Source of the DNA: Escherichia coli | Lineage (GTDB): Bacteria; Pseudomonadota; Gammaproteobacteria; Enterobacterales; Enterobacteriaceae | Direction: 5' to 3' (one strand) | NCBI RefSeq assembly: GCF_044324785.1 | Contig: NZ_CP172127.1 | Length of the DNA stretch: 64,000 nucleotides | Part shown: positions 9,480 to 48,898 of the stretch, piece by piece | How the letters are laid out: each line of letters opens with the position of its first letter | How positions within the stretch are numbered: the first letter of the stretch is position 1 | The notes under the pieces: generated by a model | Databases searched by the model: none | What the model was told of the DNA's origin: nothing | Seen by the model: the letters and a program-made list of their open reading frames with translations, nothing else | Made by a program: the position numbers and the translations under genes

Positions 9480-11922
<2,443 letters not shown>

Positions 11923-36621: not shown

Positions 36622-36737
36622 ATTCCTTTGTCAAGACCTGTTATCGCACAATGATTCGGTTATACTGTTCGCCGTTGTCCAACAGGACCGCCTATAAAGG
36701 CCAAAAATTTTATTGTTAGCTGAGTCAGGAGATGCGG

Positions 36738-37991
36738 ATGTTAAAGCGTGAAATGAACATTGCCGATTATGATGCCGAACTGTGGCAGGCTATGGAGCAG
36801 GAAAAAGTACGTCAGGAAGAGCACATCGAACTGATCGCCTCCGAAAACTACACCAGCCCGCGCGTAATGCAGGCGCAGGGTTCTCAGCTGACCAACAAAT
36901 ATGCTGAAGGTTATCCGGGCAAACGCTACTACGGCGGTTGCGAGTATGTTGATATCGTTGAACAACTGGCGATCGATCGTGCGAAAGAACTGTTCGGTGC
37001 TGACTACGCTAACGTCCAGCCGCACTCCGGCTCCCAGGCTAACTTTGCGGTGTACACCGCGCTGCTGGAACCAGGTGATACCGTTCTGGGTATGAACCTG
37101 GCGCATGGCGGTCACCTGACTCACGGTTCTCCGGTTAACTTCTCCGGTAAACTGTACAACATCGTTCCTTACGGTATCGATGCTAGCGGTCATATCGACT
37201 ACGCCGATCTGGAAAAACAAGCCAAAGAACACAAACCGAAAATGATTATCGGTGGCTTCTCTGCATATTCCGGCGTGGTTGACTGGGCGAAAATGCGTGA
37301 AATCGCTGACAGCATCGGTGCTTACCTGTTCGTTGATATGGCGCACGTTGCGGGCCTGGTTGCTGCTGGCGTCTACCCGAACCCGGTTCCTCATGCTCAC
37401 GTTGTTACTACCACCACTCACAAAACCCTGGCGGGTCCGCGCGGTGGCCTGATCCTGGCGAAAGGTGGTAGCGAAGAGCTGTACAAAAAACTGAACTCTG
37501 CCGTTTTCCCTGGTGGTCAGGGCGGTCCGTTGATGCACGTAATCGCCGGTAAAGCGGTTGCTCTGAAAGAAGCGATGGAGCCTGAGTTCAAAACTTACCA
37601 GCAGCAGGTCGCGAAAAACGCTAAAGCGATGGTAGAAGTGTTCCTCGAGCGCGGCTACAAAGTGGTTTCCGGCGGTACTGATAACCACCTGTTCCTGGTT
37701 GATCTGGTTGATAAAAACCTGACCGGTAAAGAAGCTGACGCCGCTCTGGGCCGTGCTAACATCACCGTTAACAAAAACAGCGTACCGAACGATCCGAAGA
37801 GCCCGTTTGTGACCTCCGGTATTCGCGTGGGTACTCCGGCGATTACCCGTCGTGGCTTTAAAGAAGCCGAAGCGAAAGAACTGGCTGGCTGGATGTGTGA
37901 CGTGCTGGACAGCATCAATGATGAAGCGGTTATTGAGCGCATCAAAGGTAAAGTTCTCGACATCTGCGCACGTTACCCGGTTTACGCATAA
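36738..37991 (+). CDS. glyA: Serine hydroxymethyltransferase, 417 aa
   Basis: ORF 36732..37991; ATG 36738 after AGGAG; PLP-lysine motif [14 protein letters not shown]. Confidence 0.98.
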
Positions 37992-38024
37992 GCGAAACGG
38001 TGATTTGCTGACAATGTGCTCGTT

Positions 38025-38128
38025 GTTCATGCCGGAAGCGGCATGAACGCCTTATCCGGCCTACAAAACTTTGCAAATTCAATATATTGCAATATCCGTG
38101 TAGGCCTGATAAGCGTAGTGCATCAGGC
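38025..38128. repeat. REP/BIME cluster downstream of glyA
   Basis: Hairpin GTTCATGCCG...CGGCATGAAC, then REP copies GCCTTATCCGGCCTAC and inverted GTAGGCCTGATAAGCG...CATCAGGC. Confidence 0.8.
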
Positions 38129-38188: not shown

Positions 38189-39382
38189 TCAAATCTGCCG
38201 TAACTGCGCCTCAACATACAAATAGCCAATTCCCAGCACCTGTTGTGCGCGGCTTAATTGCCCAAAGCCAATCTGTGTCGCTTTCACGCTCGGTCCTTCG
38301 TCGCGGTCGAAAGGGTTAAATCCCGTCTGGCGAATGATGGTATTAAGCCAGTTCTCACCAAAGGCACAACTGCGACCGTACAACCAAATCTGATTAATAT
38401 TGAGGATGTTGAGGAAGTTATACAGACTCAAACCAATGGCGTTGGCAGAGCGATCAACCCAACTGGTGATCCACGGTTCTCCACTCTGCCAGGCAGCGAT
38501 TAACTGCGCAGTAGTCAGTTTTTCAGGATCAAGCTGAGTATTAACCGGTTGTGATTTTAGCCATACCCGCGCCTGTTTTTTTAATGCGCTTAACGAGGCG
38601 ACGGTTTCCAGGCAGCCATAACGTCCGCAGTCGCAGACGACGCCATCCGGATTAACGATGGTGTGACCAATCTGTCCGCTACCATACAAACTGCCGCGAT
38701 AAATTTGCTCGTTAATCACGAACGACGAGCCAATGCCGTAATCAACGTTGATCACGCAGAAATCCCGGCCCTGCGAATTATTTTGCCATTTCTCCGCCAG
38801 CGCCAGCATCACGCAGTCATTATCGACCATCACCCGAATGCCGAGCTTCTCTTCCAGCAGATACTTTACCTCAACCGGCGTTGTCCACGGTGCTTGCGGC
38901 ATGGTTTGCGACACGCCAGTCACCGGATCAACCTGACCGTGGATTGCCAGCGCCAGGTTGATGGTACGGTCCGGCCACAATTTACGGTGGCGATGCCAGC
39001 ATTTTTCGATTTCGGACAGCAGCGCCTGCGGCGTCGGTGCATCAATCTGTAAATACTCAAATTCACCTTTCGGACTTAAACAGGCGTTAGCGACCTGACA
39101 CTCAATACTGGTGGGCGTCACGTTCAGGCACAGCGTCCAGTCACCTTCCGGCGCAATCAGCCATGTACCGCTACTATGCCCGCGCGTCTGGCTTTCATCG
39201 TCGATATTCACCACCCGTTTTTCGCTTTCCAGTTCCTGCAAAATATTACTGACCGCCGGAATCGAAATTTGCGCCAGCCGGGCCAGGGTTGATTTATTGG
39301 CGCGCTTTTGCCGGTACAGCAGTTCCAGAATCACGCATTTGTTATGGTGGCGAATCTGTTGATTATTAATGCAGGCTCTCAT
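38189..39382 (-). CDS. yphH: ROK (NagC/Mlc)-family transcriptional regulator YphH, 397 aa
   Basis: ORF 38189..39388 (GTG); ATG (cat 39380-39382) gives MRACINNQQIRHH...; N-terminal HTH and ROK CxCGxxGC zinc motif. Confidence 0.85.
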   Translation of the reverse strand: MRACINNQQIRHHNKCVILELLYRQKRANKSTLARLAQISIPAVSNILQELESEKRVVNIDDESQTRGHSSGTWLIAPEGDWTLCLNVTPTSIECQVANACLSPKGEFEYLQIDAPTPQALLSEIEKCWHRHRKLWPDRTINLALAIHGQVDPVTGVSQTMPQAPWTTPVEVKYLLEEKLGIRVMVDNDCVMLALAEKWQNNSQGRDFCVINVDYGIGSSFVINEQIYRGSLYGSGQIGHTIVNPDGVVCDCGRYGCLETVASLSALKKQARVWLKSQPVNTQLDPEKLTTAQLIAAWQSGEPWITSWVDRSANAIGLSLYNFLNILNINQIWLYGRSCAFGENWLNTIIRQTGFNPFDRDEGPSVKATQIGFGQLSRAQQVLGIGYLYVEAQLRQI

Positions 39383-39499
39383 CTTCACTAAACCTTGTTT
39401 AGTTAATTGCGTGATTATTCCGCGAAAACATTGCCAGATTGTTCAATACACTGCCACAAATCTTTTAATTCAGTATGTCTTGTTAATATTGAGGGCACC

Positions 39500-42400
39500 A
39501 TGACTCCAGTAAAAGTGTGGCAAGAGCGCGTTGAGATCCCGACCTATGAAACCGGGCCGCAGGATATACATCCCATGTTCCTGGAAAATCGCGTTTATCA
39601 GGGATCGTCCGGCGCGGTTTATCCCTACGGCGTGACCGATACGCTGAGCGAGCAGAAAACCCTGAAATCCTGGCAGGCGGTGTGGCTGGAAAACGACTAC
39701 ATCAAAGTGATGATCCTGCCGGAACTGGGCGGTCGGGTGCATCGCGCGTGGGATAAAGTGAAACAGCGCGATTTTGTCTATCACAATGAAGTCATTAAAC
39801 CGGCGCTGGTGGGGCTGCTGGGACCGTGGATCTCCGGCGGGATTGAGTTTAACTGGCCGCAACACCATCGCCCGACCACCTTTATGCCCGTTGATTTCAC
39901 CCTCGAAGCCCATGAAGACGGCGCACAGACGGTGTGGGTAGGCGAAACGGAGCCGATGCATGGTTTACAGGTGATGACAGGTTTCACCCTGCGTCCTGAC
40001 CGGGCGGCGCTGGAAATCGCCAGCCGCGTCTATAACGGCAACGCCACGCCGCGTCATTTCTTGTGGTGGGCCAACCCGGCAGTGAAAGGGGGTGAAGGGC
40101 ATCAGAGCGTTTTCCCACCGGATGTGACTGCGGTGTTTGATCACGGCAAACGGGCCGTCTCTGCTTTCCCCATCGCCACCGGCACTTACTACAAAGTGGA
40201 CTACTCCGCTGGAGTGGACATTTCTCGCTATAAAAATGTGCCTGTTCCAACCTCATATATGGCTGAAAAATCACAGTACGATTTTGTTGGCGCGTGGTGT
40301 CACGATGAAGATGGCGGTTTGCTGCACGTTGCCAACCACCATATTGCGCCAGGTAAAAAACAGTGGAGTTGGGGACACAGTGAATTTGGCCAGGCGTGGG
40401 ATAAGAGTCTGACCGACAATAACGGCCCGTATATCGAACTGATGACTGGTATTTTTGCCGATAACCAGCCCGATTTTACCTGGCTTGATGCTTACGAAGA
40501 GAAGCGTTTCGAGCAGTATTTCCTGCCTTATCATTCTCTGGGCATGGTGCAAAATGCCTCCCGCGATGCGGTGATAAAACTCCAGCGTAGTGAGCGGGGG
40601 ATTGAGTGGGGGCTGTATGCCATCTCTCCGTTGAACGGATACCGCCTGGCGATCCGCGAAATCGGCAAATGCAACGCGTTACTTGATGATGCCGTGGCCT
40701 TGACACCAGCGACCGCCATCCAGGGCGTGTTGCACGGTATCAATCCTGAAAGGCTGACCATTGAGCTCTCCGATGCCGACGGCAATATTGTACTGAGTTA
40801 TCAGGAACATCAGCCGCAAGAGTTGCCGTTGCCGGACGTCGCCAAAGCGCCACTGGCAGCACAAGACATTACCAGTACAGATGAAGCCTGGTTTATCGGT
40901 CAGCATCTGGAGCAATATCATCACGCCAGCCGTTCACCGTTCGATTACTACCTGCGCGGCGTGGCGCTGGATCCGCTGGATTATCGCTGTAATCTGGCGC
41001 TGGCGATGCTGGAATATAACCGCGCAGATTTCCTGCAAGCGGTGGCGTATGCCACTCAGGCGCTGAAACGCGCACATGCGCTGAACAAAAATCCGCAGTG
41101 CGGACAGGCGAGTTTGATTCGCGCCAGTGCTTACGAACGTCAGGGGCAATATCAACAAGCCGAAGAGGATTTCTGGCGTGCGGTCTGGAGCGGCAACAGT
41201 AAAGCCGGTGGCTATTATGGTCTGGCACGGCTGGCGGCGCGTAATGGTCACGTCGACGCTGGTCTGGATTTTTGCCAACAAAGTCTTCGCGCCTGCCCAA
41301 CCAATCAGGAAGTGCTTTGCCTGCATAATCTGCTGCTGGTGTTAAGTGGTCGTCAGGACAACGCGCGTTTGCAGCGTGAGAAACTGCTGCGTGATTATCC
41401 GCTGAACGCCACTCTGTGGTGGCTGAACTGGTTCGATGGTCGTAGCGAATCAGCCCTCGCGCAGTGGCGCAGTCTGTGTCAGGGACGCGACGTTAACGCC
41501 CTGATGACCGCCGGGCAACTGATTAACTGGGGAATGCCCACCCTGGCGGCAGAGATGCTGAACGCACTGGACTGCCAGCGCACGCTGCCGCTTTACTTGC
41601 AAGCCAGCATGCTGCCGAAAGCTGAACGCGGCGAACTGGTCACAAAAGCCATTTATGTCTTCCCGCAGTTTGTCCGTTTCCCGAATACGCTGGAAGAAGT
41701 GGCGGCGCTGGAGAGTATTGAAGAGTGCTGGTTTGCCCGTCATTTACTGGCCTGCTTCTACTACAACAAGCGCAGCTACAACAAAGCCATTACTTTATGG
41801 CAACGTTGCGTAGAGATGTCGCCGGAGTTTGCCGACGGCTGGCGCGGGTTAGCGATCCATGCGTGGAATAAGCAACACGATTATGAGCTGGCCGCGCGTT
41901 ATCTTGATAATGCTTATCAGCTTGCTCCGCAGGATGCACGTCTGCTTTTCGAACGGGATTTGCTGGATAAGTTAAGCGGAGCCACACCGGAGAAACGACT
42001 GGCGCGTCTGGAAAATAATCTGGAAATTGCGCTGAAACGCGACGACATGACCGCAGAACTGCTCAATTTGTGGCATCTCACGGGTCAAGCAGACAAAGCG
42101 GCGGACATTCTCGCCACGCGCAAATTCCACCCGTGGGAAGGCGGGGAAGGGAAGGTCACCAGTCAGTTTATCCTCAACCAGTTATTACGCGCCTGGCAGC
42201 ATCTTGATGCCAGAGAGCCGCAGCAGGCCAGCGAACTGCTTCATGCCGCGCTGCATTATCCGGAGAATTTAAGCGAAGGCCGTTTACCGGGGCAAACTGA
42301 CAACGACATCTGGTTCTGGCAGGCGATATGCGCCAACGCGCAGGGTGATGAAACTGAAGCGACGCGTTGTTTACGTCTGGCGGCGACTGGCGATCGCACC

Positions 42401-42781
42401 ATTAACATTCACAGTTATTACAACGATCAGCCGGTTGATTATCTCTTCTGGCAAGGAATGGCGCTGCGACTGCTGGGCGAACAACAAATCGCACAGCAAC
42501 TGTTTAGTGAAATGAAACAGTGGGCGCAAGAGATGGCGAAAACCAGTATCGAGGCGGATTTCTTTGCTGTTTCACAACCTGACCTGTTGTCGCTGTATGG
42601 CGATTTACAACAGCAGCATAAAGAAAAATGCCTGATGGTGGCGATGCTGGCGTCCGCGGGACTAGGGGAGGTTGCGCAATATGAATCTGCTCGTGCTGAA
42701 TTGACGGCGATTAATCCGGCCTGGCCGAAAGCAGCATTATTCACCACCGTGATGCCTTTTATTTTTAACCGCGTTCACTAA
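39500..42781 (+). CDS. yphG: Large TPR-repeat protein YphG (start uncertain: ATG 39500 with GAGGG RBS, or TTG 39407)
   Basis: Continuous ORF 39407..42781 (1124 codons from TTG, 1093 from ATG); TPR-like repeats in the C-terminal two-thirds. Confidence 0.8.
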   Translation: MTPVKVWQERVEIPTYETGPQDIHPMFLENRVYQGSSGAVYPYGVTDTLSEQKTLKSWQAVWLENDYIKVMILPELGGRVHRAWDKVKQRDFVYHNEVIKPALVGLLGPWISGGIEFNWPQHHRPTTFMPVDFTLEAHEDGAQTVWVGETEPMHGLQVMTGFTLRPDRAALEIASRVYNGNATPRHFLWWANPAVKGGEGHQSVFPPDVTAVFDHGKRAVSAFPIATGTYYKVDYSAGVDISRYKNVPVPTSYMAEKSQYDFVGAWCHDEDGGLLHVANHHIAPGKKQWSWGHSEFGQAWDKSLTDNNGPYIELMTGIFADNQPDFTWLDAYEEKRFEQYFLPYHSLGMVQNASRDAVIKLQRSERGIEWGLYAISPLNGYRLAIREIGKCNALLDDAVALTPATAIQGVLHGINPERLTIELSDADGNIVLSYQEHQPQELPLPDVAKAPLAAQDITSTDEAWFIGQHLEQYHHASRSPFDYYLRGVALDPLDYRCNLALAMLEYNRADFLQAVAYATQALKRAHALNKNPQCGQASLIRASAYERQGQYQQAEEDFWRAVWSGNSKAGGYYGLARLAARNGHVDAGLDFCQQSLRACPTNQEVLCLHNLLLVLSGRQDNARLQREKLLRDYPLNATLWWLNWFDGRSESALAQWRSLCQGRDVNALMTAGQLINWGMPTLAAEMLNALDCQRTLPLYLQASMLPKAERGELVTKAIYVFPQFVRFPNTLEEVAALESIEECWFARHLLACFYYNKRSYNKAITLWQRCVEMSPEFADGWRGLAIHAWNKQHDYELAARYLDNAYQLAPQDARLLFERDLLDKLSGATPEKRLARLENNLEIALKRDDMTAELLNLWHLTGQADKAADILATRKFHPWEGGEGKVTSQFILNQLLRAWQHLDAREPQQASELLHAALHYPENLSEGRLPGQTDNDIWFWQAICANAQGDETEATRCLRLAATGDRTINIHSYYNDQPVDYLFWQGMALRLLGEQQIAQQLFSEMKQWAQEMAKTSIEADFFAVSQPDLLSLYGDLQQQHKEKCLMVAMLASAGLGEVAQYESARAELTAINPAWPKAALFTTVMPFIFNRVH

Positions 42782-42797
42782 ACCTTATTAACTGTAA

Positions 42798-42834
42798 TAT
42801 TTGAGCGGCACGCGCTGCCGCTCACGCTCAAATA
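42798..42834. other. Nested inverted repeat between yphG and yphF
   Basis: TATTTGAGCG...CGCTCAAATA outer arms with inner GAGCGGCA/TGCCGCTC arms; 17 nt after the yphG stop. Confidence 0.5.
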
Positions 42835-42877
42835 ATTAAAATAAGCCGTTGTAAATAAAAACCCTACAGGAGGCACT

Positions 42878-43861
42878 ATGCCTAAAAAAATGAGAACAAC
42901 CCGTAATCTATTATTAATGGCTACGCTATTAGGTAGCGCACTATTCGCCAGGGCTGCGGATAAAGAAATGACCATTGGCGCAATATACCTTGATACCCAG
43001 GGATATTACGCTGGCGTGCGTCAGGGCGTTCAGGATGCGGCAAAAGATTCTTCAGTACAGGTACAGTTAATTGAAACTAACGCCCAGGGTGATATTTCGA
43101 AAGAAAGTACCTTTGTTGATACCCTCGTGGCGCGTAATGTCGATGCCATTATTTTATCGGCAGTGTCTGAAAATGGCAGTAGCCGTACCGTTCGTCGCGC
43201 CAGTGAAGCGGGTATTCCGGTGATTTGCTACAACACCTGTATTAATCAAAAAGGCGTCGATAAATATGTCTCGGCGTATCTGGTCGGCGATCCGCTGGAA
43301 TTTGGTAAAAAACTGGGTAACGCTGCCGCCGATTATTTTATTGCCAACAAAATTGACCAGCCGAAAATTGCCGTTATCAATTGCGAAGCCTTTGAAGTTT
43401 GTGTGCAACGACGTAAAGGGTTTGAAGAAGTATTAAAAGCCCGCGTTCCCGGCGCGCAAATTGTCGCTAATCAGGAAGGGACTGTTTTAGATAAAGCGAT
43501 TTCCGTTGGTGAAAAACTAATTATCTCCACGCCGGATCTCAACGCCATTATGGGCGAATCGGGCGGTGCGACACTCGGCGCGGTAAAAGCGGTACGTAAT
43601 CAAAATCAGGCCGGAAAAATTGCTGTTTTCGGTTCTGATATGACCACTGAAATTGCTCAGGAGCTGGAAAACAACCAGGTGCTGAAAGCGGTGGTGGATA
43701 TTTCCGGTAAGAAAATGGGCAATGCTGTTTTCGCGCAAACTTTGAAGGTTATCAATAAACAAGCCGACGGTGAAAAAGTGATTCAGGTGCCTATCGATCT
43801 CTATACCAAAACGGAAGACGGTAAACAGTGGCTGGCAACGCACGTTGATGGTCTGCCCTAA
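42878..43861 (+). CDS. yphF: ABC transporter periplasmic sugar-binding protein YphF
   Basis: 327 aa with signal peptide; AGGAGG RBS. Confidence 0.9.
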   Translation: MPKKMRTTRNLLLMATLLGSALFARAADKEMTIGAIYLDTQGYYAGVRQGVQDAAKDSSVQVQLIETNAQGDISKESTFVDTLVARNVDAIILSAVSENGSSRTVRRASEAGIPVICYNTCINQKGVDKYVSAYLVGDPLEFGKKLGNAAADYFIANKIDQPKIAVINCEAFEVCVQRRKGFEEVLKARVPGAQIVANQEGTVLDKAISVGEKLIISTPDLNAIMGESGGATLGAVKAVRNQNQAGKIAVFGSDMTTEIAQELENNQVLKAVVDISGKKMGNAVFAQTLKVINKQADGEKVIQVPIDLYTKTEDGKQWLATHVDGLP

Positions 43862-43883
43862 TCGCTGATTCGCAGAGGTCCCT

Positions 43884-45395
43884 ATGTTCACGGCAACAGA
43901 GGCAGTCCCGGTAGCAAAAGTGGTGGCAGGAAATAAGCGTTATCCCGGCGTCGTTGCGTTGGATAACGTTAACTTCACGCTCAATAAAGGCGAAGTTCGT
44001 GCGCTGTTAGGCAAAAACGGCGCGGGCAAATCGACCCTCATTCGAATGCTTACCGGTAGCGAACGTCCGGATAGCGGTGATATCTGGATTGGCGAGACGT
44101 GACTGGAAGGTGACGAAGCTACGCTGACTCGCCGTGCCGCTGAACTGGGGGTACGCGCGGTTTATCAGGAGTTAAGTCTGGTGGAAGGGCTGACGGTGGC
44201 GGAAAACCTCTGCCTCGGTCAATGGCCCCGCCGCAACGGCATGATTGATTACCCGCAAATGGCGCAGGATGCCCAACGTTGCTTACTGGCGCTGGGCGTT
44301 GACGTTAGTCCTGAACAACTTGTTTCAACACTAAGCCCGGCGCAAAAGCAGCTGGTGGAAATTGCGCGGGTGATGAAAGGCGAGCCGCGCGTGGTCATTC
44401 TTGATGAACCTACCAGTTCGCTTGCCAGTGCGGAAGTTGAACTGGTGATCAGCGCGGTTAAAAAGATGTCGGCACTGGGCGTGGCGGTGATTTATGTCAG
44501 CCACCGGATGGAAGAAATTCGCCGCATTGCCTCCTGTGCCACCGTTATGCGCGATGGTCAGGTGGCGGGCGATGTGATGCTCGAAAACACCTCCACGCAT
44601 CATATTGTGTCGCTAATGCTCGGGCGCGATCACGTTGATATTGCGCCGGTTTCCCCTCAGGAAATTGTCGATCAGGCCGTGCTGGAAGTCCGTGCGTTAC
44701 GCCATAAGCCCAAGCTGGAGGATATCAGCTTTACGCTCCGTCGTGGCGAAGTACTCGGCATTGCTGGCCTGCTGGGGGCAGGGCGCAGTGAATTGTTGAA
44801 AGCCATAGTTGGGCTGGATACGTATGAACAGGGCGAAATTGTTATCAACGGCGAGAAAATCACGCGCCCCGATTACGGCGACATGCTGAAACGCGGCATT
44901 GGCTATACGCCAGAAAACCGCAAAGAAGCGGGGATCATTCCCTGGCTGGGCGTTGACGAAAATACGGTGCTGACCAATCGGCAAAAAATCAGCGCCAACG
45001 GTGTGCTGCAATGGTCCACCATCCGCCGCCTGACCGAAGAGGTGATGCAGCGGATGACGGTCAAGGCCGCCAGTAGCGAAACGCCCATCGGCACGCTTTC
45101 TGGCGGCAATCAGCAAAAAGTGGTGATCGGTCGTTGGGTCTATGCCGCCAGCCAGATTTTGTTGCTCGACGAGCCAACGCGTGGCGTCGATATCGAAGCC
45201 AAACAGCAGATTTACCGTATTGTCCGCGAGCTGGCTGCCGAAGGAAAAAGCGTGGTGTTTATCTCCAGTGAAGTGGAGGAGTTGCCGCTGGTGTGTGACC
45301 GCATCCTGTTATTACAGCACGGCACGTTCTCGCAGGAGTTTCACGCTCCGGTCAATGTGGATGAGCTGATGTCCGCCATTCTGTCTGTGCACTGA
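43884..45395 (+). pseudogene. yphE: Sugar ABC transporter ATP-binding protein YphE interrupted by an in-frame TGA at codon 73 (44100-44102)
   Basis: ORF-track entries 43884..44102 (72 aa, Walker [10 protein letters not shown]) and 44181..45395 (404 aa) are in the same frame; the only break is TGA 44100-44102; 72+1+430 codons = 503, the recalled intact YphE length. Confidence 0.85.
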
Positions 45396-45419
45396 TGAAT
45401 TTTACCGAGGAACCTGAAG

Positions 45420-46418
45420 ATGTCTGCTTCGTCATTACCATTGCCGCAGGGCAAGAGCGTCTCGCTCAAACAATTTGTCAGTCGCCATATTAATGAGATC
45501 GGTTTGCTGGTGGTGATTGCCATTCTTTATCTGGTCTTCTCCCTGAACGCGCCTGGCTTTATCTCATTGAATAACCAGATGAACGTGCTGCGCGATGCCG
45601 CCACCATCGGGATCGCCGCCTGGGCGATGACGCTGATTATTATCTCTGGTGAAATTGATGTCAGCGTTGGGCCGATGGTGGCTTTTGTCTCGGTGTGCCT
45701 GGCATTTTTGCTGCAATTTGAAGTTCCGCTGGCGGTGGCGTGTCTGCTGGTGTTGCTGTTAGGCGCGCTGATGGGAACGCTGGCCGGGGTGCTGCGCGGC
45801 GTGTTTAACGTACCAAGTTTCGTGGCCACGCTGGGGCTGTGGAGCGCCCTGCGCGGAATGGGGCTGTTTATGACCAACGCACTGCCAGTGCCGATTGACG
45901 AAAATGAGGTGTTGGACTGGTTGGGGGGACAATTTCTCGGTGTGCCGGTATCTGCGCTGATCATGATGGTGCTGTTTGCGCTGTTTGTGTTCATTAGCCG
46001 CAAAACCGCCTTCGGGCGCTCGGTTTTTGCCGTTGGCGGTAATGCCACGGCGGCGCAGTTATGCGGTATTAACGTTCGTCGGGTACGCATTCTTATTTTT
46101 ACCCTTTCGGGATTATTAGCAGCGGTGACCGGCATTTTGTTGGCGGCGCGCCTCGGTTCTGGTAACGCAGGTGCGGCAAACGGTCTGGAGTTTGACGTCA
46201 TCGCCGCGGTCGTGGTCGGCGGTACGGCACTTTCCGGCGGTCGCGGTTCCCTGTTCGGTACATTGCTTGGTGTGCTGGTGATTACGCTAATCGGTAACGG
46301 TCTGGTGCTGCTCGGTATTAACTCCTTTTTCCAGCAGGTGGTACGCGGCGTCATCATCGTGGTGGCGGTGCTGGCGAATATCTTGCTGACCCAGCGAAGC
46401 AGTAAAGCGAAACGCTAA
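45420..46418 (+). CDS. yphD: ABC transporter permease YphD
   Basis: 332 aa multi-TM permease (ribose/xylose-type); RBS GAGG. Confidence 0.9.
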   Translation: MSASSLPLPQGKSVSLKQFVSRHINEIGLLVVIAILYLVFSLNAPGFISLNNQMNVLRDAATIGIAAWAMTLIIISGEIDVSVGPMVAFVSVCLAFLLQFEVPLAVACLLVLLLGALMGTLAGVLRGVFNVPSFVATLGLWSALRGMGLFMTNALPVPIDENEVLDWLGGQFLGVPVSALIMMVLFALFVFISRKTAFGRSVFAVGGNATAAQLCGINVRRVRILIFTLSGLLAAVTGILLAARLGSGNAGAANGLEFDVIAAVVVGGTALSGGRGSLFGTLLGVLVITLIGNGLVLLGINSFFQQVVRGVIIVVAVLANILLTQRSSKAKR

Positions 46419-46483
46419 ACCTTAACGCCCCTGGCGCGGGTGCGGCAGGGATGAAAATTAATCGTATTGTTAATGAGGGATTT

Positions 46484-47545
46484 ATGAAAACGATGCTGGC
46501 AGCTTATTTACCAGGAAATTCGACCGTCGATCTGCGGGAAGTTGCGGTGCCGACGCCGGGGATTAACCAGGTACTGATCAAAATGAAATCCTCCGGAATT
46601 TGCGGAAGCGATGTCCACTATATCTACCACCAGCACCGCGCTACGGCGGCGGCACCCGATAAACCGTTATACCAGGGATTTATCAACGGTCATGAACCGT
46701 GCGGGCAAATTGTGGCGATGGGGCAAGGCTGCCGCCATTTTAAAGAGGGCGACCGTGTGCTGGTGTATCATATTTCTGGCTGTGGTTTTTGCCCGAACTG
46801 CCGTCGTGGTTTTCCTATCTCTTGTACTGGCGAAGGAAAAGCGGCTTACGGCTGGCAGCGTGACGGCGGCCATGCTGAATACCTGCTGGCGGAAGAAAAA
46901 GATCTGATCCTGCTCCCGGACGCGCTGAGCTATGAAGATGGTGCGTTTATCAGTTGCGGCGTTGGTACAGCGTATGAAGGGATTTTGCGCGGCGAAGTTT
47001 CCGGCAGTGATAACGTGCTGGTGGTCGGTCTGGGGCCGGTCGGCATGATGGCGATGATGCTGGCGAAAGGTCGCGGTGCAAAACGGATCATCGGCGTTGA
47101 TATGCTGCCGGAACGTCTGGCGATGGCAAAACAGTTAGGGGTGATGGATCACGGCTATTTAGCGACCACCGAAGGTCTGCCGCAGATAATTGCTGAACTT
47201 ACCCACGGTGGCGCGGATGTTGCGCTCGATTGTTCTGGTAATGCCGCAGGTCGCTTGCTGGCACTGCGATCCACCGCTGACTGGGGACGGGTGGTTTACA
47301 TCGGAGAAACCGGAAAAGTGGAGTTCGAGGTCAGCGCCGATCTGATGCACCATCAACGGCGGATTATCGGCTCCTGGGTGACCAGTCTGTTCCATATGGA
47401 AAAATGCGCCCATGATCTGACGGACTGGAAACTGTGGCCGCGTAACGCCATTACCCATCGCTTCACGCTGGAACAGGCAGGTGATGCCTATGCGCTGATG
47501 GCGAGCGGCAAATGCGGGAAAGTTGTGATTAACTTCCCGGATTAA
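46484..47545 (+). CDS. yphC: Zinc-dependent alcohol/sugar dehydrogenase YphC, 353 aa
   Basis: ORF 46451..47545; ATG 46484 after GAGGGA; MDR motifs GHEPCG and GLGPVG. Confidence 0.85.
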   Translation: MKTMLAAYLPGNSTVDLREVAVPTPGINQVLIKMKSSGICGSDVHYIYHQHRATAAAPDKPLYQGFINGHEPCGQIVAMGQGCRHFKEGDRVLVYHISGCGFCPNCRRGFPISCTGEGKAAYGWQRDGGHAEYLLAEEKDLILLPDALSYEDGAFISCGVGTAYEGILRGEVSGSDNVLVVGLGPVGMMAMMLAKGRGAKRIIGVDMLPERLAMAKQLGVMDHGYLATTEGLPQIIAELTHGGADVALDCSGNAAGRLLALRSTADWGRVVYIGETGKVEFEVSADLMHHQRRIIGSWVTSLFHMEKCAHDLTDWKLWPRNAITHRFTLEQAGDAYALMASGKCGKVVINFPD

Positions 47546-47556
47546 GGAGTTAGCGG

Positions 47557-48429
47557 ATGACCATCTATACCTTGTCCCACGGGTCGCTAAAGCTGGGCGT
47601 TTCTGACCAGGGCGGCGTAATCGAAGGCTTCTGGCGCGATACGACGCCGCTCTTACGTCCTGGTAAAAAAAGCGGTGTGGCAACCGATGCCTCTTGTTTT
47701 CCGCTGGTGCCATTTGCAAACCGGGTGAGCGGCAACCGTTTTGTCTGGCAGGGGCGTGAGTATCAACTGCAACCGAATGTTGAGTGGGATGCGCACTATC
47801 TGCACGGCGACGGCTGGCTGGGGCAGTGGCAATGTGTCTCGCGCAGCGAAGATAGCTTGTGTCTGGTGTATGAACATCGCAGCGGTGTTTATCACTATCG
47901 GGTAAGTCAGGCGTTTCATTTAACGGCGGATACGCTGACGGTGACGCTCTCTGTCACCAATCAAGGGGCAGAGACGCTGCCATTTGGTACCGGCTGGCAT
48001 CCTTATTTTCCGTTGTCACCACAAACGCGGATTCAGGCGCAGGCGAGCGGTTACTGGCTGGAGCGGGAGCAGTGGCTGGCGGGTGAGTTTTGCGAGCAGC
48101 TACCGCAGGAGCTGGATTTCAACCAGCTCGCGCCGTTGCCGCACCAGTGGGTAAACAATGGCTTTGCCGGATGGAATGGTCAGGCCCGCATCGAGCAGCC
48201 GCAGGAGGGTTATGCCATCATCATGGAAACGACGCCACCTGCACCATGTTATTTCATCTTTGTTTCCGACCCGGCGTTTGATAAAGGATATGCGTTTGAT
48301 TTCTTCTGTCTGGAACCGATGAGCCATGCGCCGGATGACCATCATCGCCCGGAAGGGGGTGATCTCATTGCGCTTGCACCAGGGGAATCAACAACTTCAG
48401 AGATGTCGTTGCGGGTTGCGTTACTGTAA
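47557..48429 (+). CDS. yphB: Aldose 1-epimerase-family protein YphB
   Basis: 290 aa; ORF-track match, RBS AAGGAG. Confidence 0.85.
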   Translation: MTIYTLSHGSLKLGVSDQGGVIEGFWRDTTPLLRPGKKSGVATDASCFPLVPFANRVSGNRFVWQGREYQLQPNVEWDAHYLHGDGWLGQWQCVSRSEDSLCLVYEHRSGVYHYRVSQAFHLTADTLTVTLSVTNQGAETLPFGTGWHPYFPLSPQTRIQAQASGYWLEREQWLAGEFCEQLPQELDFNQLAPLPHQWVNNGFAGWNGQARIEQPQEGYAIIMETTPPAPCYFIFVSDPAFDKGYAFDFFCLEPMSHAPDDHHRPEGGDLIALAPGESTTSEMSLRVALL

Positions 48430-48437
48430 TTTATAAA

Positions 48438-48477
48438 ATGCCGGATAAGGCGTTCACGCCGCATCCGGCATGTTTTT
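48438..48477. repeat. REP-type palindrome between yphB and yphA, also serving as terminator
   Basis: ATGCCGGAT aaggcgttcacgccgc ATCCGGCAT followed by GTTTTT. Confidence 0.75.
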
Positions 48478-48898
48478 AACGCCGATCGAGAGAAATTGCC
48501 CCCGGCCCGGTAATTGCCAACAGCAGGAATGCGCCAGCGATACTGACATTCTTCCAGAAATTAATCATATTTGGCCCAACCGCATCGCCGGTCATATCCC
48601 AGTAATGGTGACCAATTACCGCTGTACCCAGCGTGTAGAAAATAAACAGCACCGCCAGCGGACGGGTGAAAAAGCCAAGCACGATTAATATCGCGGCGGG
48701 CACTTCCATAACTACCGCAATAATCGCTGCCAGCATCGGCATTGGCGCGCCCAGCGAGGCCATATATTGGACCGTACCGTCAAAACCCATCATTTTGGGA
48801 AAACCAAAAATAATGAAAATTAAGACCACGGCGATACGGGCAATTAATAACAAAACGGGGCGTGCAGCACCAAAATCAAAATAACGTAGTGAGTTCAT
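48476..48898 (-). CDS. yphA: DoxX-family inner membrane protein YphA, 140 aa
   Basis: ORF 48476..48970; internal ATG (cat 48896-48898) gives [14 protein letters not shown]... Confidence 0.85.

Follow-up and report, generated by a model that had tools for sequence, protein, structure and literature searches.

YphG, the signature protein of the Escherichia coli yph locus, belongs to a widespread family with a predicted mutarotase fold and a TPR solenoid

What does the yph locus of Escherichia coli do, and which of its products sets it apart from the sugar systems already described? Its eight genes, yphH to yphA, are among those of E. coli K-12 that still lack an explanation. Here they occupy positions 38189 to 48898 of a 64,000-nucleotide stretch of contig NZ_CP172127.1 (RefSeq assembly GCF_044324785.1), hereafter called the window, between glyA (36732-37991) and hcaD (from 48995). 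The genes have long been annotated, and a system with a transporter, a dehydrogenase, a mutarotase, and a repressor is of a familiar type. A preliminary description of the sequence had read them as a unit for sugar uptake and conversion, which in general terms fits both the family assignments and the genomic context presented below. The unfamiliar part is YphG, the signature protein that defines a module found in hundreds of species. We propose, with a probability of roughly 0.5, that the locus encodes a repressor-controlled system for the uptake and first-step conversion of a neutral monosaccharide, in which YphG would be a ring-opening enzyme. The preliminary description had named no substrate, and none is on record: the searchable literature holds no functional study of the yph locus or of DUF5107, the Pfam family of YphG, and assigns no substrate. 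We used the curated NCBIfam equivalog cut-offs as the test for substrate transfer; no yph protein reaches any of them, and therefore no substrate can be transferred to the locus.

The Pfam scan of YphG gave DUF5107 at residues 39 to 324 (E value of 3e-55), weak tetratricopeptide repeats (TPRs), and neither a DNA-binding nor an NTPase domain. We modeled the protein with AlphaFold2, a structure prediction that the preliminary description had proposed, from a 100-sequence alignment reaching down to 25% identity. The model, of very high confidence (pLDDT of 96, pTM of 0.93), has a mutarotase-fold β-sandwich at the N terminus, a small β domain, and a long TPR solenoid. In fold searches, the N-terminal domain groups with stand-alone mutarotases (aldose-1-epimerase fold) and not with the accessory domains of glycosidases, and the helical part matches TPR superhelices (OGT, Ctr9, Ski3, and anaphase-promoting complex [APC] subunits) and not (α/α)6 barrels. 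A catalytic (α/α)6 barrel of the type found in glycoside hydrolase families GH15, GH65, and GH95 was not found in YphG. The AFDB50 fold search returned only proteins named "DUF5107 domain-containing protein," and a profile search of the PDB with the N-domain alignment had 5CD6 as its sole match. The family thus far has no characterized member despite its exceptional conservation and breadth. Between E. coli and Bacteroidota or Firmicutes, the N-terminal domain is 61 to 68% identical, and about 110 of its 350 positions are invariant, including H122, H123, R124, D208, H215, K286, K287, E313, N322, Q323, and D325; D321 is nearly invariant. The motifs around H122/H123, H215, and E313 are also kept in the distant paralog 5CD6, and their His...His...Glu order mirrors the catalytic set of mutarotases. 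In the TPR region, the FHPWEGGEG loop is a nonhelical segment of the model, and its F876 and E880 are nearly invariant among the 100 sequences. Most YphG homologs have no signal peptide.

We determined how widely the protein is distributed by an exhaustive HMMER search of clustered proteins with YphG residues 1 to 480 (E value of ≤0.001), which gave 3,935 related cluster representatives, most of them about 1,100 amino acids long. In a scan with one genome per species, at least 589 relatives of YphG were confirmed among the 600 matches listed. For the genomic context, we kept 80 loci from Enterobacterales, Aeromonas, Bacteroidota, and Firmicutes (about 40% full-length identity), clustered the neighboring open reading frames (ORFs), and annotated the representatives. 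An AraC-family regulator, usually divergent, is present in 48 of the 80 loci; a XylE-like sugar porter of the major facilitator superfamily (MFS), typically directly upstream on the same strand, in 45; and a GH2 enzyme of about 930 amino acids in 33. Genes for ATP-binding cassette (ABC) importers of the CUT2 type occur in 13 to 18 loci, followed by a ROK regulator (12 loci), a Zn-dehydrogenase (11), a YphB-like epimerase (10), and GalM (10). Occasional neighbors are GH97-like α-galactosidase, β-l-arabinopyranosidase-like, IlvD/arabinonate-dehydratase-like, and tagaturonate-reductase-like proteins, a GDSL esterase, and sulfatases. The preliminary description had thought a giant TPR protein unusual in a sugar-utilization operon, and the reverse holds, as homologs of YphG stand in sugar loci throughout this set of 80, across three phyla. 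The conserved core of these loci is a regulator, YphG, and a monosaccharide transporter, with or without a YphB-like mutarotase. Because GH2, α-galactosidase, arabinopyranosidase, and GalM adjoin distant homologs, there is a weak hint that the substrate may be a galacto- or arabino-configured sugar.

A separate observation concerns eight loci of marine Flavobacteriia (L028, L034, L040, L042, L058, L064, L067, and L082), which share the fixed order sulfatase, MFS porter, GDSL esterase, GH2, YphG homolog, and sulfatases/GH2. This arrangement, centered on the YphG homolog, resembles a conserved locus for a glycan that carries sulfate and possibly acetyl groups.

The company of glycosidases raises the question whether YphG could itself be a new intracellular glycoside hydrolase, phosphorylase, or lyase that splits a disaccharide, oligosaccharide, or glycoside taken up by the cell and whose released sugar YphB would mutarotate, much as in LacZ/GalM and YihQ/YihR. 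Distant homologs do lie in polysaccharide-utilization loci beside GH2, GH97-like enzymes, sulfatases, and CUT1 permeases, and transporter, glycosidase, mutarotase, and repressor form a recurrent operon design. Architectures that combine a β-sandwich with helical repeats occur in GH15, GH65, GH95, and polysaccharide lyase family PL8-type enzymes. Against this, the transporters paired with YphG are of monosaccharide types (XylE-like porter and CUT2 ABC importer), and the fold searches described above place the N-terminal domain with stand-alone mutarotases and the helices with a TPR superhelix. Moreover, conservation in YphG peaks in the β-sandwich, which is noncatalytic in those glycoside hydrolase and lyase families. 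We therefore regard a glycosidase-type YphG as very unlikely.

A second alternative to catalysis is that YphG acts as a sugar-sensing adaptor, with a mutarotase-fold domain that would hold the sugar and TPRs that would bind the regulator or the transporter and so couple the sugar to expression or uptake. TPR solenoids are classic interaction modules, and the C-terminal 630 residues of YphG are bona fide TPR. A divergent ROK or AraC regulator is its most constant neighbor (at least 60 of the 80 loci), and the core module lacks the enzymes that would feed a sugar into central metabolism. There is also a precedent among ROK repressors, since Mlc is controlled by protein sequestration (PtsG or MtfA) and not by a small ligand. 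However, ROK and AraC regulators are unrelated, and yet YphG keeps its full-length identity of about 40% and its much higher N-domain identity across loci with either, which is hard to reconcile with coevolving contacts. The dense invariant polar residues (His, His, Arg, Asp, Glu, Lys-Lys, and DNQPD) resemble an active site, and YphG lacks any DNA-binding or NTPase domain. On balance, a noncatalytic adaptor seems unlikely to us.

How might the locus be regulated? The preliminary description had suggested a search for ROK-binding sites between yphH and yphG. When we ran it, this 117-nucleotide gap yielded a perfect palindrome (O1 in Table 1), which lies 4 nucleotides from the yphH start codon. 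In E. coli, Klebsiella, Aeromonas, and Serratia, its two halves show symmetric conservation. When up to 3 mismatches were allowed, 15 of 16 ROK-type loci had the motif about 113 to 125 nucleotides ahead of the yphG homolog; elsewhere, only 5 matches were found in about 350 kb. A second operator-like copy (O2) overlaps the yphG stop codon upstream of yphF, and this position holds the motif in the ABC-type loci of Klebsiella, E. coli, E. albertii, and Budvicia. We suggest ACTAAAC-N3-GTTTAGT as a candidate YphH operator. In E. coli, no further, weaker copy of the operator turned up around the ribosome-binding site of yphG at up to 5 mismatches. Far outside the locus, a copy of the palindrome with one mismatch (ACTAAACACGGTTTGGT) is present at 11841-11857; it may be due to chance, since the expectation for one window is about 1.6 matches when up to 3 mismatches are allowed.

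Beside O1 is the 9-mer ATTGCGTGA, which is invariant across five genera, from E. coli to Aeromonas and Serratia, and recurs in 12 of the 14 other intergenic regions of ROK-type loci, often with ATTGYG 11 nucleotides later. We considered the CGTGA of this invariant block as half of a cAMP receptor protein (CRP) site and rejected it, as TGTGA-N6-TCACA has no match with up to 3 mismatches at 39383-39499; across the window, hits to the CRP consensus are fewer than in shuffled sequences. The hexamer TACACT fits TAnnCT, of which the T, A, C, and T are invariant in the alignment, and is a possible -10 element of the yphG promoter. A simple sigma-70 scan called no full promoter in the yphH-yphG gap. 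Between yphG and yphF lies a hairpin whose arms, GAGCGGC...GCCGCTC, are conserved in Enterobacterales; it was rejected as an intrinsic terminator because it has no U-tract. The Rfam scan found no riboswitch or leader, and its only matches, to REP-like small RNAs in the flanking gaps, are below threshold.

The preliminary description had treated all eight genes as one unit, which the comparison of genomes that it had proposed does not bear out. The loci of Aeromonas, Serratia, and Klebsiella oxytoca consist only of a ROK gene divergent from genes for YphG, the MFS porter, and a YphB-like protein. In K. oxytoca, whose locus shares the glyA-linked position of the E. coli locus, this single porter replaces YphFED and YphC; Citrobacter and Cedecea also have it in their place. 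In MFS-type loci, the YphB-like genes (31 to 35% identical) come after the porter. The E. coli-type arrangement of ABC, YphC, and YphB genes recurs in Klebsiella pasteurii and in a small number of other Enterobacterales, at times accompanied by the MFS porter. YphFED together with YphC is hence a lineage-specific elaboration, the E. coli-type variant of the conserved core. The place of yphA shifts as well: it is next to yphB in E. coli and E. albertii; Klebsiella and other genera have it between glyA and yphH; and it is absent from the loci of Aeromonas, Serratia, and Budvicia and from all those outside Enterobacteriaceae. Because it is adjacent only within Enterobacteriaceae and on different sides, its membership is doubtful, and it is probably a bystander.

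Both the YphFED importer and, after yphB, a XylE-like porter are found in three loci (L013 to L015, from Enterobacter sp. BIGb0383, RIT691, and Budvicia diplopodorum). Such dual-transporter loci may reflect what the enterobacterial ancestor had; E. coli would then have lost the porter, and K. oxytoca the ABC genes together with yphC.

Taken further, these differences would mean that the locus is no single transcript or unit: yphH and yphG, with a transporter and yphB, would be an ancient module, yphFED-yphC a cassette that was gained on its own and has its own transcript, and yphA unrelated. The exchange of transporters, the genomes carrying both, the change of sides of yphA, and the presence of O2 and the conserved hairpin between yphG and yphF all speak for this division. 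The same operator motif precedes both parts, however, which implies coregulation, and as far from E. coli as Budvicia the genes keep their order, strand, and short spacing. In Firmicutes, CUT2 ABC genes likewise accompany YphG homologs, and a YphC homolog with 48% identity adjoins one in a metagenome-assembled genome of Dorea. We consider two separately acquired units a possibility that we would not favor, and one that is compatible with the function proposed here.

The other proteins agree with sugar handling at the level of families, and the domain assignments of the preliminary description hold in Pfam and NCBIfam for all eight genes. YphH has the architecture of a ROK repressor, with an N-terminal DNA-binding part and a ROK domain (Pfam ROK) in which the zinc motif CDCGRYGC (CxCGxxGC type) is intact. 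Its residues 10 to 343 align with the NagC and Mlc profiles (Mlc, 10 to 335) at scores below the equivalog cut-offs, and it differs from RefSeq WP_001200774.1 at 4 amino acids. It has been called the "third uncharacterized ROK repressor" of E. coli (PMC4288165) and both in 2016 and in 2022 (PMC9308461) it still stood among the transcription factors whose function was unknown. YphF has the Pfam domains Peripla_BP_1 and Peripla_BP_4 and a Sec signal peptide, MPKKMRTTRNLLLMATLLGSALFARA. It matches the profiles of allose-, galactose-, ribose-, and galactofuranose-binding proteins, all far below cut-off (64 bits for the allose-binding model, with a cut-off of 335), and its nearest solved structure is 5hsg (89 bits). 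In its intact form, YphE has 503 amino acids and two ABC_tran domains and matches AraG, XylG, and AlsA below cut-off. YphD (Pfam BPD_transp_2) scores 227 and 221 bits with the RbsC and AraH profiles, also below the equivalog cut-off, and has no amino acid difference from the reference over 332 residues despite 30 nucleotide differences. NCBIfam thus places YphFED among the CUT2 importers, whose substrates include allose, ribose, arabinose, xylose, galactose, and galactofuranose. In a proteomic study of levoglucosan, YphF increased alongside XylF, MalE, MglA, and UgpB (PMC8753852). We do not accept levoglucosan-specific induction and read the joint rise with many catabolite-controlled binding proteins as general catabolite derepression.

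YphC has ADH_N and ADH_zinc_N domains, a GHE motif, a Cys4 structural zinc site (CGFCPNCRRGFPISC), and GLGPVG, and the acidic residue after β2 (GVD) suggests that it uses NAD+. It fits threonine dehydrogenase (170 of 380 bits) and scyllo-inosose 3-dehydrogenase (168 of 450 bits) about equally, both below cut-off. YphB (Pfam Aldose_epim) is essentially identical to PDB 3NRE, E. coli b2544 (E value of 8e-203), an aldose-1-epimerase-fold structure to which no substrate is assigned. At 39 bits against a cut-off of 251 for the aldose-1-epimerase equivalog, it is not a GalM-type equivalog, and it has served as a mutarotase comparator (PMC5902678). YphA is a DoxX-family membrane protein.

Put together, these assignments suggest the following route. 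From their family membership, YphF would bind the sugar in the periplasm and YphD and YphE would import it. In the cytoplasm, YphG would act on the imported sugar through the His/His/Glu set of its mutarotase fold, opening the ring and so converting anomers, ring forms, or epimers, with the TPR solenoid as an integral scaffold or lid. YphB would then equilibrate the anomers of the product, and, in the E. coli-type variant only, the NAD+-type YphC would oxidize this product or a related sugar. YphH would repress the yphH/yphG region and the yphF junction by binding ACTAAAC-N3-GTTTAGT.

Several points weigh against this proposal. The Aldose_epim profile has no hit on YphG at an E value of ≤10, and hhalign joined the N-domain and YphB-type epimerase alignments over 23 columns with a probability of 1%, so that the catalytic residues cannot be mapped by sequence; their equivalence to those of mutarotases would rest on motif order only. 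We know of no mutarotase that bears a 630-residue TPR solenoid, TPRs usually mediate protein-protein contacts, and the role of the large solenoid is unexplained. Without a kinase, isomerase, or aldolase, the core module likewise does not account for entry to central metabolism. O1 lies about 45 to 60 nucleotides upstream of the candidate yphG -10 element with no second site near the promoter, a placement that does not readily account for repression of yphG, and O2 and the hairpin may mean that yphG and yphFEDCB are separate transcripts. The activity, substrate, and binding that we propose are drawn from sequence, model, and context. Going further, one may tentatively see in YphG a new, very widespread class of cytoplasmic sugar-processing protein, in which a TPR solenoid houses a mutarotase-fold catalytic domain. 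Right after import, it would carry out a previously unrecognized first step on a common monosaccharide from the diet or the host, possibly furanose/pyranose or anomer/epimer conversion of a galacto- or arabino-configured sugar. The module is found in Proteobacteria, Bacteroidota, and Firmicutes, and YphH would be its dedicated ROK repressor in enterobacteria. We see this broader claim as possible, and hold it with much reserve.

The window has one lesion in this system. The nonsense codon in yphE noted in the preliminary description is real, with TGA at codon 73 where the reference has CGA (Arg). The truncated YphE has 72 amino acids and keeps only the Walker A of the first nucleotide-binding domain (G43-T51), and a downstream yphE ORF of 404 amino acids from GTG 44181 lacks that Walker A. 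Two complete nucleotide-binding domains in one polypeptide are thus encoded by the ancestral form and not in the window. As only the first-domain Walker A is retained, the ABC importer should, judged from its gene, be inactive or largely so in this strain, and the remaining locus is intact. Of the stop contexts in E. coli, UGA with a C after it is the leakiest, and some full-length YphE may still be made by read-through. Expression of yphDCB may also suffer from polarity caused by the premature stop.

Does this codon mark a nascent pseudogene cluster, as the preliminary description had suspected in speaking of decay in this lineage? The cut is early, and the locus has no other gene for an importer ATPase. 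None of the 5,257 complete E. coli genomes with the matching region contains the exact 59-mer that surrounds the TGA; the best match differs at one position. The exact YphG protein of the window is found on about 280 E. coli contigs, of which we read the 24 longest. One place, L091, stands for 22 of these; it has CGA and an intact yphE for 503 amino acids and differs from the window by 2 nucleotides in 17,282. Locus L092, which is identical to the window across 17,282 nucleotides and carries the Pfam assignments used here, has the TGA. L093 (GCA_040713815.1) shares it and, in addition, has a changed yphH stop (TGA to TTA at the equivalent of window position 38190, adding 22 amino acids) and YphB S39N; it may be a single hint of relaxed constraint once the importer is lost. 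Because the nonsense codon is absent from the complete genomes and near-identical relatives have CGA, it is young: on these sequences, it is a recent CGA-to-TGA transition segregating inside one clone and not lineage-wide decay.

The rest of the evidence points the same way. Compared with the annotated chromosome L001, the seven other genes have no stop or frameshift, and the yphE TGA is the sole lesion in 10.7 kb. The ratio of nonsynonymous to synonymous substitutions (dN/dS) against the 2%-divergent E. coli VCSW7 is 0 to 0.12 for all eight genes, which are under purifying selection. The 10.7-kb stretch is at least 80% covered in 5,370 of 5,426 complete E. coli genomes (about 99%). Neither multiple lesions, nor relaxed selection, nor a lineage-wide lesion was found at the locus, and the leaky stop may spare some function. 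Decay of the system is in our judgment highly improbable. As to the strain itself, the best full-region identity among complete RefSeq E. coli genomes is about 98.1%, and draft or metagenome contigs (L091 to L093) reach 99.97 to 100%; the lineage of the window seems to have no complete genome in the collection. The synonymous divergence (dS) of yphE from VCSW7 is 0.019 and that of the other seven genes 0.05 to 0.12, which suggests a recombination mosaic inside the operon.

The features of the locus are collected in Table 1. Gene coordinates were taken from the ORF list and from alignment to L001, and both agree with the eight gene calls and the divergent and convergent layout given in the preliminary description. 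The yph locus is annotated gene content and no chance pattern. With intergenic gaps of 11 to 96 nucleotides and no excess of terminators, the layout fits an operon. The longest yphG ORF begins at TTG 39407 (1,124 amino acids). We prefer the annotated ATG 39500 because the N terminus MTPVKVW... is conserved across phyla and most homologs have an in-frame stop no farther than 15 to 30 codons before the start. Two long antisense ORFs, of 429 amino acids opposite glyA (36741-38030, minus strand) and of 276 amino acids opposite yphD (45527-46357, minus strand; low-complexity translation), are most likely spurious. The subthreshold Rfam matches at 38010-38107 in the glyA-yphH gap and 48439-48507 in the yphB-yphA gap, to ES036/CssrF (37.1 bits, gathering score of 37.6 bits) and naRNA4/CssrE, look like repetitive extragenic palindromic (REP)-type elements bracketing the locus. 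No tandem repeats were found.

Table 1. Genes, predicted YphG domains, and candidate regulatory elements of the yph locus, in window positions
Feature	Residues	Positions	Strand	Remarks
yphH		38189-39382	-	ORF list and L001; ROK-family (NagC/Mlc-type) regulator, 397 aa, intact
yphG		39500-42781	+	1,093 aa; cytoplasmic
yphF		42878-43861	+	Periplasmic solute-binding protein of CUT2-type sugar ABC importer, intact
yphE		43884-45395	+	Sugar ABC ATPase with tandem nucleotide-binding domains, R73* by TGA at 44100-44102
yphD		45420-46418	+	BPD_transp_2 permease, intact
yphC		46451-47545	+	Zn-dependent medium-chain dehydrogenase, intact; alternative start at 46484 gives 353 aa
yphB		47557-48429	+	Aldose-1-epimerase-family protein, intact
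yphA		48476-48898	-	DoxX-family membrane protein, convergent
YphG mutarotase-fold domain (β-sandwich)	1-345	39500-40534	+	Model
YphG small β domain	357-435	40568-40804	+	Model
YphG TPR solenoid, about 630 residues	460-1092	40877-42775	+	Model
YphG FHPWEGGEG loop in TPR region	876-884	42125-42151	+	Alignment and model
O1 palindrome ACTAAAC-CTT-GTTTAGT		39387-39403		Perfect inverted repeat, candidate operator
Invariant 9-mer ATTGCGTGA		39406-39414		Beside O1
TAnnCT hexamer TACACT		39447-39452	+	Possible -10 element
O2, second operator-like copy ACTAAACCTTATTAACT		42777-42793		Overlaps yphG stop codon, upstream of yphF
Conserved hairpin, yphG-yphF gap		42798-42834	+	RNA fold of -22.5 kcal/mol, z of -2.1, no U-tail

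For the strain at hand, the practical consequence is modest, as its ABC importer is probably inactive through a recent point mutation. The wider meaning is that attention moves from an ABC transporter of an unknown sugar to YphG. The question of what YphG does is directly testable, since there is a member in a tractable E. coli with a candidate repressor and operator, and knowing it would allow thousands of genes to be annotated in polysaccharide-utilization loci from the gut and the sea.

Compared with known systems, YphFED has the same parts list as the CUT2 importers of E. coli (RbsBAC, AlsBAC, AraFGH, XylFGH, MglBAC, and YtfQRT-YjfF): a Peripla_BP_4 protein with a Sec signal, an ATPase of about 500 amino acids with fused nucleotide-binding domains, and a BPD_transp_2 permease. 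Unlike these named systems, it stays below every curated equivalog cut-off, and its ATPase is truncated in this genome. Like NagC, Mlc, and XylR, YphH combines a DNA-binding part with a ROK zinc domain, and a palindrome lies in the divergent promoter region. The candidate YphH operator is a 7-3-7 palindrome, whereas the NagC/Mlc site has 23 bp with TT/AA at ±5,6, and YphH forms its own small branch without the GR linker motif of NagC and Mlc (PMC4288165). Similar to galETKM, with GalM, and the yih sulfoquinovose cluster, with YihR, the yph locus brings together a transporter, a repressor, and an aldose-1-epimerase-family protein. It differs from both in having two mutarotase-fold proteins, YphB and, as predicted, the N-terminal domain of YphG, and no kinase, isomerase, or aldolase. 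The closest solved structure to YphG, 5CD6 (BDI_1685 of Parabacteroides distasonis), is a structural-genomics "TPR-domain containing protein" of 580 amino acids, about half the length of the 1,093-residue YphG and about 21% identical to it, with no function or ligand reported. Stand-alone aldose 1-epimerases (GalM, YeaD, and hexose-6-phosphate mutarotase; 3mwx, 3ty1, 2ciq, and 1l7j) have no profile-level similarity to YphG. In comparison with them, YphG carries the extra β domain and the TPR solenoid, and it is far more conserved across phyla than mutarotases usually are.

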